Numbered from the stretch's first letter, positions 25,434 to 28,690 are shown. The stretch: DNA of 64,000 nt from Clostridium sp. CAG:343 (GCA_000431335.1 FR888067.1:98849-162848), one strand, 5' to 3'. The notes: generated by a model not told the origin, from the letters alone. Numbers and translations: made by a program.

Positions 25434-26732
25434 ATGAAACAGAGAAAAATACTAAAAAATAGTAAAGGTATTACATTAATAGCTCTTGTCATTACTATCA
25501 TTGTCCTTTTAATTTTAGCTGCAATAAGCATTGCGACTTTAACTGGAGAAAACGGAATTTTAACTCAAGCTAATAAAGCCAAAACAGAGACAGATGAAAA
25601 AGGAGCATTAGAAGAAGTACAACTAGAGGTAATGGGAAGTTTTGATAATAATGGAAATTATAGTTCTAGTTTGGCAAAAACGAATTTAGAAAATAACCTA
25701 AAAGCAACCGTAGCAGATAAAGGCAACGGAAAATTAAAGGTAGAGTATAAAGGTTATACATTTAATGTAGATATAAATGGAGATGTAAAAATAAAATCTA
25801 ATATAGACTATTCAAAACTAAAAGTTGGAGACTATGTAGATTATCATCCAGATGATGTGGAGACGGCATATGATAAATTTGGAGAAACCTATTCAGGATA
25901 TGCAAATGGTAATATAGGACAAGATGATAGTTTGGGTTGGAGAATATTAAACATTAATGAAGATGAGGATACGATAGAATTAATTAGTGATAAGCCAACT
26001 TCTACTACTGTACGTTTTAAAGGAGCAAGAGGATATAATAATGGAGTAGCACTATTAAATGATTATTGTAAAACCATGTATAGTAATAAATCAAAAGAAG
26101 CAGTTGCAAGAAGTTTAAATATAGAAGATATACAAGATAAAATGAGAGTCAATGAAGCAACAGGGAAAAAGGCATATGAAAGTTATTCAAGTGGAACAGG
26201 AACCGTTTATAAAACAGGTACTTATCCATATTCAAGTATTAAATGGTATCCATTACAATGGAAACAAGATAATGGAATAGAAGGGGAGAGCAAACCTAAA
26301 AATCCAGAAAGCTCAGATATTATATCCTATGCATCTGAAGATAATGCCAAGGCTCAAGAAACATCAGGAGACTTGACAGTAACACAAACATATTGGCATT
26401 TGGGTTCAAGTGATATGAGTTCAAATTTTGAATCAGCAGATACAAGAGATATTACAAAAGCAAATAGTATGTATTATGAGTTATTATGTAATAATGGAAG
26501 TTCTTATTATTGGTTGGCGTCTCGCTATGTCAATACCAACAGCTCGTCTTTTGCTAATTTTGGCTTGCGCTATGTGCGCCACGGCGGCGTTGACGGTAGC
26601 AGTGTGTTCGACTCGAGCTCTGGCGCGCGCAGCAACGACGATTGCGTTCGCCCCGTAGTTTCTCTACCATCTAATGTCATAGACTTAAATACAGATTATG
26701 TAAGTGTAGGAAAATGGAACTTAAATAGTTGA
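25434..26732 (+). CDS. DGR variable (target) protein: pilin-like N-terminal helix plus C-terminal C-type-lectin-fold-like variable domain
   Basis: N-terminus MKQRKILKNSKG-ITLIALVITIIVLLILAAISIATL. C-terminus WLASRYVNT..FANFGLRYV..CVRPVV contains the VR. Confidence 0.85.
   Translation: MKQRKILKNSKGITLIALVITIIVLLILAAISIATLTGENGILTQANKAKTETDEKGALEEVQLEVMGSFDNNGNYSSSLAKTNLENNLKATVADKGNGKLKVEYKGYTFNVDINGDVKIKSNIDYSKLKVGDYVDYHPDDVETAYDKFGETYSGYANGNIGQDDSLGWRILNINEDEDTIELISDKPTSTTVRFKGARGYNNGVALLNDYCKTMYSNKSKEAVARSLNIEDIQDKMRVNEATGKKAYESYSSGTGTVYKTGTYPYSSIKWYPLQWKQDNGIEGESKPKNPESSDIISYASEDNAKAQETSGDLTVTQTYWHLGSSDMSSNFESADTRDITKANSMYYELLCNNGSSYYWLASRYVNTNSSSFANFGLRYVRHGGVDGSSVFDSSSGARSNDDCVRPVVSLPSNVIDLNTDYVSVGKWNLNS
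26511..26662 (+). repeat. DGR variable repeat (VR)
   Basis: Collinear with 27589-27740. All 24 internal mismatches fall at template adenines. Locally GC-rich in an AT-rich genome. Confidence 0.9.
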
Positions 26733-26748
26733 AACAAAAAGAAGAGAA

Positions 26749-26781
26749 CTCGTCTAGCGGGCCTCGTGTCCGCCGGACGAG
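26749..26781 (+). other. GC-rich hairpin downstream of VR
   Basis: CTCGTC-ta-GCGG / loop gcctcgtgt / CCGC-cg-GACGAG. Confidence 0.6.
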
Positions 26782-26801
26782 CAATTTTACGGAGAGATTA
26801 T

Positions 26802-27257
26802 ATGGGAATAATAAATATGATACAAACGATAAAATTAGTTCATAAGTTGGATATTATACTAGTTAAAATAGGAAAATTCTATCAAGTATATGGAAAAGAT
26901 GCCTATATTATTTCATACTTGTTTGGGTATAAACTAAAAAGAGTAGAAAATGTGATGGTGTGTGGATTTCCATTAAGTAGTGTTAATAAAATAATATCAA
27001 TATTGGAAGATAAAAAAATAAATTATTTAATAGTAGATAGAAGAAATAACTACGAAGTAGATGAAAGATTGGATAATAAGAATCTAAATAACTATACAAA
27101 ATACTTTGAAAAAGCTAAAAAATATATCAGCTATAAAACAAGAATTGATAATATAAATAATTTTTTGTTAGAAAATATAGATAAAGAAGATTTTAAAGAT
27201 ATAATAAGAAAAATGGAAGATGTCATAAATGAAAGAGGAGAAATTTCAAGTCATTAA
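26802..27257 (+). CDS. DGR accessory protein with MutS-domain-I-like N-terminus (MSL-type)
   Basis: ..LVKIGKFYQVYGKDAYIISYLFGYKLKRVENVMVCGFPLSSVNKIISILEDKKINYLIVD.. follows the MutS mismatch-binding-domain pattern (GDFYE.F..DA....L.I.LT......P..MCG.P). ATG 26802 follows the RBS ggagag. Confidence 0.55.
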   Translation: MGIINMIQTIKLVHKLDIILVKIGKFYQVYGKDAYIISYLFGYKLKRVENVMVCGFPLSSVNKIISILEDKKINYLIVDRRNNYEVDERLDNKNLNNYTKYFEKAKKYISYKTRIDNINNFLLENIDKEDFKDIIRKMEDVINERGEISSH

Positions 27258-27576
27258 TTTTATTAGAAAACTAATATTGGAAATTGATAAAGAATTAAGT
27301 AATTTTCCAAAAAAAGATATAGAATTAAAAAATAGAATTAGAAATACTAGTTATAATTTACTTGAATTGTCTTATGAAGCAAATACTACAAGTAATGAAA
27401 AAAACAAAGAAGCTTTACTAGAAAAAATAATTGCAAAAATAAAAGTCTTAGATTTTTTATTAAATTTATGCTATGATAAAATGATTATAAATAATAAAAA
27501 GTATATTAAATTAGGAGATAGGATAGATGATATAATTAAATATACGACTGGTTGGAAAAAAACGATAAATCAGTAG
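27229..27576 (+). CDS. avd: Avd-like accessory variability determinant (four-helix-bundle protein)
   Basis: 115 aa, helical, basic. The pattern ..IRKLILEIDKELSNFPKKDIELKNRIRNTSYNLLELSYEAN.. matches the Avd / 23S-rRNA-IVS protein family. Ends 12 nt before the TR. Confidence 0.7.
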   Translation: MKEEKFQVINFIRKLILEIDKELSNFPKKDIELKNRIRNTSYNLLELSYEANTTSNEKNKEALLEKIIAKIKVLDFLLNLCYDKMIINNKKYIKLGDRIDDIIKYTTGWKKTINQ

Positions 27577-27588
27577 GGCATAGTTGTA

Positions 27589-27740
27589 TGGTTGGCGTCT
27601 CGCTATGTCAATACCAACAACTCATCTTATGCTAATTTTGGCTTGCGCAATGTGAACAACGGCAACGTTAACGGTAACAATATGTTCAACTCGAACTCTA
27701 ACACGAACAACAACAACAATTACGTTCGCCCCGTAGCTTC
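27589..27740 (+). repeat. DGR template repeat (TR)
   Basis: Non-coding copy of the VR, rich in AAC triplets (..aacaacggcaacgttaacggtaacaat..acgaacaacaacaacaat..). Confidence 0.9.
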
Positions 27741-27804
27741 TATAAACTGTGGTTATGCAATCATAGATTGTATAAGAGATAATATAGAAACAGACTGTGT
27801 CCTT

Positions 27805-27831
27805 TAGCTAAAAGTTTTAGATTTTTAGCTA
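27805..27831 (+). other. perfect 9-bp hairpin about 65 nt downstream of TR
   Basis: tagctaaaa-gttttagat-ttttagcta. Confidence 0.5.
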
Positions 27832-27922
27832 TAAAGTAAAAATAGATAAATATATTTGTTAGTAGGTATTTTTGTATATTCGAAAGGGAGTATATTTTAG
27901 GACTGTTTTTAAGGTAGTAATT

Positions 27923-28690
27923 CTAGTAGTTACTACCCTTTTTACATAAATTTTGATAGCAGATTATACTATTAACTACACCAGTAAGCTTTATCTCACC
28001 TGTCTGATATAAATGAATTCTTTTTTTAATCTTTCTTCTAACATCTCTATATTTAGCATAATTGCCATTGGGTTTTCTTCCTAGAAAGATAAAATTATTG
28101 GTACTTTTATAAATTCTAGTTTTTTTATTCAATACTAATTTTTCCTTTTCTAAAAATTTTTTTAATTCTTCTAAGCAGTATTTTAGATACTGTTTGGAGG
28201 GGTGGAATAACAAAAAATCGTCTTGATACCTGATTAGATACTTGATTTTCAAGGTTTCTTTTATAAAATGATCCATGTCATTTAAATAAAAGATGGCTAA
28301 CACTTGACTTGTCATAGCACCGATACTTAATCCATTCTCTTCACTATCAATGATATCAAAAACAATTTTTAAAGCATCTTTATCTTTGATTCGTCTTTCT
28401 AGTTTTTTCTTTAAAATATCATGGTCAATGCTTGCAAAAAACTTACTAATATCACACTTTAAAATATAATAGGTTTTATATTTTACTTTACAAATTCTAT
28501 GGAAATTCATAGCTAATCTAATTCCTTCACTTGTACCTAAGCCTTTTCTACTAGCAACATTTACATCTAAAAGACAAGGTAAAATAGCAGGGTAGAGAAT
28601 ATACCTTGCGACTAAATGATTAATGACTTTATCTTGCATGCTTTGGCTTACAATTCTTCTTTCTTTTGGTTCATAAATAGTAAAAACAGT
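27923..28690 (-). pseudogene. DGR-type reverse transcriptase, 5'-truncated and inverted relative to TR/VR/avd
   Basis: RT motifs DISKFFASIDHD, SIGAMTSQ (DGR-typical) and YQDDF. Motif 1 (FTIYEPKERRIV) is encoded upstream of the first ATG (28639). An in-frame TAG at 28691-28693 precedes it, so the usual ~50-60 aa N-terminus is absent. Confidence 0.8.

Follow-up and report, generated by a model that had tools for sequence, protein, structure and literature searches.

Does a diversity-generating retroelement (DGR) still rewrite its target gene once its reverse transcriptase (RT) has been cut short? The question is raised by a locus at positions 25,434 to 28,690 of a stretch of 64,000 nucleotides (nt) from Clostridium sp. 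CAG:343 (GCA_000431335.1 FR888067.1:98849-162848), which is called the window below and from whose first letter all coordinates are counted. The initial annotation of this DNA had described a DGR with a variable region (VR), a template repeat (TR), an Avd protein, an extra accessory gene and a DGR-type RT. All of these components were recovered in the present analysis; the RT, taken at first for a working gene, proved to be a 5′-truncated remnant of 238 instead of 317 amino acids (aa). The reading that we prefer, with a probability of about 0.78, is that of a genuine DGR of the Msl+Avd type at a tRNA-Gln gene, which has been deleted twice, has lost the 5′ part of its RT gene, is no longer autonomous and carries a VR frozen from earlier retrohoming. 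The cassette type itself is already thoroughly described. The coordinates of all features are collected in Table 1.

The evidence for a DGR comes from the comparison of the 3′ end of the target gene with the non-coding repeat behind avd. When the intervals 26511-26662 and 27589-27740 were compared gaplessly at an offset of 1078, 25 mismatches were found over 152 nt, which reproduces the collinear homology of about this length that had been seen in a hand alignment. All 24 mismatches within 26542-26644 are located at TR adenines (19 A>G, 3 A>C and 2 A>T), in agreement with the earlier count, and the 25th is the lone C/T difference already pointed out, TR C27737 against VR T26659. The number of unchanged adenines in the same span had been put at about 19 and has to be corrected to 14, of 38 TR adenines present there. 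A mismatch at a non-adenine position within 26523-26652 had been named beforehand as an observation that would speak against a DGR, and none was found. In the 148-nt core the TR contains 46 adenines, of which 22 are unchanged; for all 24 mismatches to fall on these adenines by chance, the hypergeometric probability is 2.9e-15. When the 64-kb window was screened against itself with a generic BLAST comparison, this VR/TR pair was the sole A-biased repeat pair returned.

The arrangement and the codon composition of the repeats are also those of a DGR. The TR starts 12 nt past the avd stop codon and ends approximately 190 nt from the RT stop codon, and the VR codes for residues ~360-408 of 432 at the 3′ end of the target open reading frame (ORF). 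The TR adenines are distributed over the codon positions as 22 at the first, 22 at the second and 2 at the third. Asn codons are found in an AAC:AAT ratio of 14:5 in the TR versus 4:26 in the remainder of the target gene, and none of the TR codons can be converted to a stop codon through adenine substitution. The codon design of the TR and the 24 of 24 adenine mismatches together support the assignment as a DGR.

The same specificity is seen among related contigs, which are designated here by L numbers. The TR is identical in L001, L002, L004, L007, L087, L088 and L091, and the VRs of these contigs differ. Six VR alleles sharing the identical TR vary at 45 of the 46 adenines, at none of the 102 non-adenine positions and at 5 of 229 flanking columns (Fisher 2e-37), with a substitution spectrum of 87 A>G, 32 A>T and 16 A>C. 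Variation of the VR among strains outside the TR adenines had also been named as a refuting observation; among the alleles with a common TR, VR variation is confined to TR adenines.

The assignment of the RT was assessed on a full-length homologue. The intact protein aligns to residues 2-284 of Bordetella bRT (PDB 8ub7) with 99 bits, versus at most 46 bits for group II or retron-type RTs; a grouping with the latter had been suggested as a possible refutation of the DGR and is not seen in these sequence searches. The RT matches PHROG 1423 (1.5e-80) and contains the motifs IGAMTSQ and YQDD, the former agreeing with DGR motif 4, [I/L]GxxxSQ. The peptide strings reported previously, including SIGAMTSQ and YQDDF, and the Avd ORF are all present. 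If the locus were not a DGR, it would have to be an ordinary duplication or gene-conversion tract beside an unrelated group II intron or retron RT, and the top NCBIfam model for the RT is indeed group_II_RT_mat, at 92.7 bits far under its cut-off of 300, with no DGR RT model among the NCBIfam matches. This explanation is refuted by the adenine-only mismatch statistics, by the adjacent avd and msl genes, by bRT as the best solved relative of the RT, by the Rfam search, in which two tRNAs are the only matches in the window and neither a group II intron nor a retron RNA appears, and by the same A-biased pair found beside an RT in 57 of 101 sequences scanned (100 fetched loci and the window).

Both accessory genes could be identified. 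The extra accessory gene of the initial annotation is the known DGR accessory gene msl, as judged by its match to Pfam MutS_I (3e-08; 34.3 bits versus a gathering cut-off of 20.6); the NCBIfam model of the MutS N-terminus is matched as well. Its start is probably ATG 26802, and the resulting length of 151 aa is the one called in related contigs; GTG 26766 is formally possible. Msl has been described as an accessory gene of DGRs of 'Architecture D' (PMC5758913) and is also found in Bacteroides DGRs (bioRxiv 10.1101/2024.11.15.621889). Intact elements related to the window contain a second small MutS_I gene directly upstream of the RT gene (L007 9566-9973; L001 2553-2966). The full cassette thus includes two Msl paralogues, of which one is retained in the window. 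For the product of avd, a match to PHROG 3206, 'Avd protein of DGR', was obtained at 6.8e-19; the matches to NCBIfam DivGenRetAVD (1.6e-11) and Pfam bAvd (3.7e-09) stay below the curated cut-offs of these models. All three agree with the Avd-like call made before for this ORF.

The RT gene, which is located on the minus strand and is convergent to the TR, is incomplete. The intact RT homologues, of which dozens were retrieved in a protein search, have a length of 317 aa, and one of them, P0001, is 100% identical to the window RT over its 255 codons and carries an additional 62 N-terminal residues. In the window an in-frame TAG at 28691-28693 bounds the open RT frame, and translation from the earliest ATG, at 28639, leads to a product of 238 aa; no ATG, GTG or TTG lies between the two. 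RT codons 1-62 were not found elsewhere in the window with tblastn, which indicates that the missing 5′ end has been deleted; a split or inverted RT gene was rejected for the same reason. The DNA homology to the intact-RT contigs L001, L002, L004, L005 and L007 ends at 28694. The undeleted order in L004 is a tRNA-Gln fragment, ~120 nt, three small genes and the RT gene, and relative to this contig GTGTTT is joined to GTATTT across ~1.67 kb. The junction is identical in 20 of 20 other truncated contigs examined.

The consequences of the truncation can be estimated from the bRT structure, in which the N-terminal extension forms the interface with Avd and touches the template-primer duplex (K29), and residues F66, R74 and I76 of the fingertips loop touch the template base and the deoxynucleoside triphosphate (bioRxiv 10.1101/2023.10.23.563531). 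The residue numbers of the 8ub7 chain agree with the bRT numbering in that work. Since a product starting at M80 would possess neither the N-terminal extension nor the fingertips loop, we infer that the RT gene is dead, the cassette non-autonomous and the VR frozen. A complete translatable RT gene, which autonomy requires, is absent from the window, and it is very unlikely that the DGR of the window is retrohoming on its own now. The initial annotation had implied a DGR fully active in cis, with the RT ORF as present or with an unrecognised start. The 255-codon RT frame is open, its palm motifs, including YQDD and IGAMTSQ, are preserved and truncated RT alleles are widespread, which speaks for such an enzyme. 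This is nevertheless highly improbable, given that no start codon is available between the stop and the ATG at 28639 and that the segments missing from the M80 product are needed according to the bRT structure. Moreover, the N-terminal lesions of other RT genes are different: those of L020, of L099/L100 (break at codon 44) and of L096, different again, look like repeated inactivation, unlike a conserved short isoform. On the basis of these sequences, the loss of the RT N-terminus is treated as the result of recurrent independent lesions. In L020 (CANONT010000029.1, 3560-3620), which represents another species and a sister element at tRNA-Leu, the RT is likewise truncated; its break lies within ~5 nt of that of the window (28684-28694) and is joined to codon 20 of a DnaD-like initiator gene. 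A shared hot spot for RT truncation was considered and not adopted because the breaks in L099/L100 and L096 differ.

The TR/VR signature is a record of past activity, and the comparison of strains suggests that the VR of the window is probably frozen. The human-gut metagenome scaffold L091 (sample SAMEA2466900) and the window share 20.6 kb at 100% identity. The exact truncated 238-aa RT ORF is listed in 1006 index blocks of a public assembly collection, the intact P0001 RT is present in 6 contigs, and the exact 432-aa target including its VR in 108 contigs. The occurrence of one and the same VR allele on 108 contigs points to a frozen VR. Point mutations have arisen in the TR of L101 (G>A at 27728) and in that of L086 (C>A). 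The avd gene of some strains is annotated with a length of only 108 aa and matches Pfam weakly; in the alignment GGTTGG is replaced there by GGTTGA. Within the VR allele family of L086 the internal differences include the non-adenine sites 26569 and 26650. A scan of metagenomes for the junction returned 10 loci, one of which (L101) spans the VR.

Several observations weigh against a frozen VR. At least three unrelated VR families, those of the window and L091, of L087, and of L086, L088 and L101, share the RT deletion junction and differ from each other only at TR adenines, which means that either retrohoming continued after the truncation or VR and RT segments were shuffled by recombination. 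The remaining parts, TR, avd, msl and the Spacer RNA and hairpin described below, are intact, with 0-4 differences in ~2 kb across strains, and this near-invariance would also fit continued use. In addition, 64 kb of the genome are in view, and a second intact DGR RT elsewhere is possible; two RT loci are found in each of the related metagenome-assembled genomes (MAGs) CANSPP01, CANQPY01 and CAJKVH01. Finally, public metagenome assemblies contain elements whose RT is intact and shows 100% identity in the 255 residues common to both (P0001, L001-L005). Taken together, these points are what would be expected if the cassette were still diversified by an RT provided in trans from a sister element or from a second DGR locus in the same genome. 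RT-less cassettes might then persist as passive but functional modules that are rewritten whenever such a source supplies the enzyme, a tentative and rather doubtful idea, and the supply in trans would explain why several unrelated A-only VR alleles stand behind one RT junction.

We consider the supply in trans unlikely, since rampant recombination at the locus could give the same pattern, one VR allele is found on 108 contigs, and the TR and avd of some strains show the decay mutations mentioned above. Binned counts of single-nucleotide polymorphisms reveal heavy mosaic recombination at the locus. When L007 11000-13450 was compared with window positions 25434-27744, that is, the target-msl-avd-TR module in two species, 0 of 155, 4 of 925 and 18 of 1076 positions were found to differ; between the same two species the divergence amounts to 10% in the adjacent RT and to ~13% in the chromosomal flanks. 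Near-identity of the module beside a divergent RT and divergent flanks suggests that the module was recently exchanged by itself. In L086 the msl-avd segment is divergent. Given this mosaicism, recombination with intact elements can explain the VR alleles behind the common junction, and a non-autonomous cassette with a frozen VR remains the reading that we prefer. An alternative target gene of 314 aa was observed in L089, L090 and L092-L095 (~10890-13080), which belong to the same species and have the same truncated RT. L090, L092, L093 and L095 contain a TR of their own (~75% identical) with an A-only VR pair; L089 and L094 have kept the window-type TR with no matching VR. Alternative targets at the same site imply cassette swapping at one locus. 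DGRs are common in this clade.

The two deletions become apparent when the islet is compared with related contigs. The islet occupies 23377-28803 and is bounded by a direct repeat of the tRNA-Gln 3′ half, forming the attachment sites attL and attR; an attR-type tRNA-Gln fragment also follows the element in L004 and L007. L007, a related MAG contig, contains a complete element of ~12.5 kb between the same chromosomal neighbours as in the window (DisA, peptidyl-prolyl isomerase; 82-87% identity). It consists of tRNA-Gln, a tyrosine integrase, an excisionase-like gene, a gene with a helix-turn-helix (HTH) motif, DUF6076, XRE, target, msl, avd, TR and RT, followed by the second MutS_I gene, DUF6809, XRE, two unknown genes, RusA-like, DnaD-like initiator, MazF-like and attR. 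In L007 and L087 the tyrosine integrase adjoins tRNA-Gln. The left deletion is delimited by two L087 BLAST segments that overlap by 15 nt at 23454-23468 and skip L087 15191-17034; it removed the integrase, the excisionase-like gene and the 3′ half of the gene for a 139-aa HTH protein. The N-terminus of the 66-aa remnant is identical to the 139-aa protein of L007 and diverges afterwards. The right deletion removed the replication module and the 5′ end of the RT gene. The DUF6076 gene beside the cassette is conserved in L001, L002, L007, L020 and L086-L095.

Judged from these alignments, the islet is what two deletions have left of a small integrative element, which looks like a satellite or mobilisable island. 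No virion genes were seen in the 12.5-kb element of L007, a subset of whose ORFs was scanned against PHROGs, and a phage origin was rejected, the best RT relative being 36% identical in IMG/VR and 36.5% in GenBank phages. The "non-phage chromosomal islet" of the first description is a decayed mobile element lying between attL and attR of a tRNA-Gln gene. Further deletions within the islet were noted in L105, L108 and L109, for example between 23753 and about 25324 and between 25660 and about 28625. The RT junction is the same in every one of these variants, which suggests that the remnant is still eroding. An IS110-family transposase gene is found beside the islet, between the peptidyl-prolyl isomerase and DisA genes, in L087 (18607-19545) and L089 (16612-17550) and not in the window.

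Table 1. Features of the DGR islet, in window coordinates
Feature	Position	Strand	Description
tRNA-Gln	23350-23424	+	ARAGORN, Rfam; 3′ half 23377-23423 = attL
Left deletion junction	23454-23468	.	~1.84 kb absent versus L087
HTH remnant, 66 aa, of 139-aa element gene	23472-23672	-	ORF; weak Sigma70_r4/HTH matches
DUF6076 protein, element backbone gene	23908-24888	+	Pfam PF19553, 2.2e-17
XRE-type HTH regulator	24951-25214	-	Weak Pfam HTH_3/HTH_26 matches; conserved in related loci
DGR target gene	25434-26732	+	432 aa; prepilin-like N-terminal helix and large domain
VR	26511-26658	+	Positions actually varying: 26527-26644
Initiation of mutagenic homing (IMH) site	26645-26666	+	GC-rich CGTTCGCCCCGTAG, then TTTCTCTA
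Hairpin	26749-26782	+	Directly past target stop codon; candidate target-site hairpin or cruciform
msl, MutS-like accessory gene	26802-27257	+	151 aa from ATG
avd	27229-27576	+	Accessory variability determinant
TR	27589-27736	+	Non-coding, 46 adenines
Spacer-like structured RNA	27737-27912	+	~175 nt, 3′ of TR, conserved and covarying
Intrinsic terminator of msl-avd-TR-Spacer transcript	27913-27943	+	Terminator scan: 10-bp stem and CTTTTT
5′-truncated DGR RT	27923-28694	-	Homology to codons 63-317 of intact RTs
attR	28757-28803	+	Displaced tRNA-Gln 3′ half, 2 substitutions in acceptor stem

The boundary at which copying would begin can be recognized in both repeats. The GC-rich IMH sequence CGTTCGCCCCGTAG is common to VR and TR, and the base that follows it is T in the VR and C in the TR. 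Of the 36 TR/VR pairs shown for the family, most likewise have a T in the VR against C or A in the TR just past the end of the (C/T)CC..TAG homology; the homology ends earlier in several pairs, for example those of L006, L020 and L057. The IMH / IMH* boundary suspected initially at this C/T difference agrees with a GC-rich IMH and a differing next base that recur in most of these pairs.

Downstream of the TR, a structured RNA resembling the Spacer of the Bordetella system was detected. The consensus obtained with RNAalifold on 48 non-redundant homologous segments contains 42 pairs in five main helices, each pair being formed in at least 38 of the 48 sequences and most in 45-48, and compensatory changes are found at several of them. 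P1 pairs 27738-27744, the IMH* segment, with 27783-27789; P2 pairs 27753-27760 with 27768-27775, P3 27805-27810 with 27826-27831, P4 27839-27845 with 27903-27909 and P5 27848-27860 with 27885-27897. The 5′ strand of P1 adjoins the last copied base, G27736, on its 3′ side. By analogy with the TR:Spacer template-primer duplex of Bordetella, P1 would fix the start of the cDNA at G27736, and such a start would explain the T in the VR against C or A in the TR at the next position in most of the 36 pairs. The terminator that follows the Spacer reaches into the 3′ end of the RT gene, which runs towards it, and covers the RT stop codon; related loci show an equivalent hairpin and U-run.

A second structured element, the hairpin past the target stop codon, was examined in 26 related loci, which were picked solely by the motif GGC[C/T]TNNNGTC within 170 nt past an IMH-like sequence. 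In these loci the apex GGC..GTC is invariant, with GGCCTNNNGTC in most of them, and the stem is free in sequence and retains its pairing: 79% of the cells are paired and a covariation score of 0.58 is reached, compared with 36-46% and at most 0.21, respectively, for slid controls. The motif occurs a single time in the window. A function as a plain terminator was rejected, as a T-run is absent after the hairpin in most homologues. No Rfam family matched the hairpin or the Spacer at E<=1 in 26700-28000. A third IMH-like sequence, TTCGACCCGTAGTTT, is present on the plus strand at 28874-28888, just beyond attR, and reads AFRPVVYS* in one frame. It is kept in all strain contigs, with 0.00 matches expected from shuffles, and may be a relic of the 3′ end of another target.

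For the intact form of the element, the following course of events is proposed by analogy with Bordetella. The msl-avd-TR-Spacer region would be transcribed as a single RNA ending at the terminator (27913-27937). The Spacer would then fold back, 27783-27789 pairing with 27738-27744, so that a priming adenosine is set beside G27736. From this base toward the 5′ end of the TR, RT and Avd would copy the template with misincorporation opposite adenines. The cDNA would replace the VR in the 3′ end of the pilin-like gene, guided by the IMH and the hairpin past the stop codon, and the outcome would be a new ligand-binding tip on the surface protein.

The target protein has exactly the sequence of CDC07336.1 from Clostridium sp. 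CAG:343, and 'Tfp pilus assembly protein PilE' and 'unknown [Clostridium sp. CAG:343]' are among the source names given for its accessions. A promoter-like site is located ahead of the gene at 25342-25371. The N-terminus is prepilin-like (KG/ITLIALVITIIVLLILA): Pfam N_methyl is matched weakly by the target and by 40 of 51 homologues. When the PDB sequences were searched with a profile, only type IV pilin N-termini were hit, again weakly. Among 16 cluster members the target is invariant over ~360 residues and hypervariable at residues ~365-404. Both AlphaFold models are of high confidence, with a predicted local distance difference test score of 90.6 for the whole target and 87.7 for the C-terminal 215 residues. 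With both models, Foldseek returned nothing below E = 0.16 in the PDB and nothing below E = 0.096 in BFVD. None of the 51 homologues has a DUF1566, FGE-sulfatase or lectin Pfam match at E<=1, nor any match beyond the pilin motif. Most known DGR targets display their VR on a C-type-lectin (CLec) fold. The pattern YWLASR...FGLR.V...VRPV only resembles that of CLec VRs; membership in CLec could not be confirmed. Judged from the models, the VR-bearing domain may be a divergent CLec fold that Foldseek has missed owing to an irregular fold, or a new scaffold. A paralogue of 421 aa with the same pilin-like N-terminus is encoded on the minus strand of L007 (3378-4643), just beyond attR in this related species. 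It has a VR-like C-terminal pattern, WWWLASP...GISPLVSL, with no TR noticed, and may be a non-diversified relative of the target family.

The prototype DGR of BPP-1 (mtd VR, avd, TR, brt) shares with the locus described here the adenine-specific transfer from TR to VR and the presence of Avd. The homology to bRT extends over the entire RT in intact copies. Both systems have a GC-rich IMH and an IMH* differing just past the copied region, and both have a structured Spacer RNA 3′ of the TR that pairs with the TR end. They differ in the orientation of the RT gene, which is convergent to the TR here and located downstream on the same strand in BPP-1, as well as in the additional msl gene and the truncation of the RT in the window. 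The target here is a pilin-like cell-surface protein, unlike the phage tail fibre of BPP-1, and the cassette is carried by an integrative element of 12.5 kb in which no virion genes were seen. The hairpin resembles the target-site hairpin/cruciform of BPP-1 (PMC3240598) in that it is located downstream of the VR, keeps its stem structure and has a conserved loop sequence. However, it starts 83 nt past the VR/TR homology (~91 nt past the last copied base) versus 4-34 bp in BPP-1 (PMC3240598). It also lies past the stop codon, its stem comprises 10-14 bp, and most loci have GGCCTNNNGTC at the apex where BPP-1 has a GRNA tetraloop.

The locus is also comparable to the Msl DGRs, which are known from Architecture D, including Legionella (PMC5758913), and from the Bacteroides systems Bfr, Bth and Bun (bioRxiv 10.1101/2024.11.15.621889). 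In these, too, a MutS-domain-I protein is combined with Avd, and the host is a cell or a mobile island and not a lytic phage. Unlike other Msl DGRs, the present one resides in an AT-rich gut member of the Clostridia, has a target with a type IV-pilin-like N-terminus and contains in its intact elements a second MutS_I gene upstream of the RT gene. VR-bearing 'G-type pilin' domains are among the rare DGR targets (PMC11661182), and Bacteroides DGRs diversify type V pilus adhesins. Unlike these targets from pilin contexts, the body of the protein described here matches no Pfam family and no PDB or BFVD structure.

DGRs have been catalogued by the thousands, and one more in a gut Firmicute changes little. 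The value of the locus lies in the fact that it is a natural and very widespread RT-knockout DGR with intact sister copies available for comparison. It is therefore suited to finding out if VR/TR cassettes accept service in trans and at what rate a VR decays once it is frozen. DGR surveys that require just an RT domain would count this locus as complete. The models of the Spacer RNA, with its proposed template-primer helix, and of the target-site hairpin are backed by covariation across dozens of loci. These two structures have so far been studied experimentally mainly in the Bordetella phage and can now be tested in a Firmicute lineage. As a separate and rather doubtful possibility, the VR-bearing domain might represent a DGR scaffold fold new to solved structures. 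A diversified pilin-like surface protein in a prevalent gut species bears on the strain-level surface variation in the microbiome.

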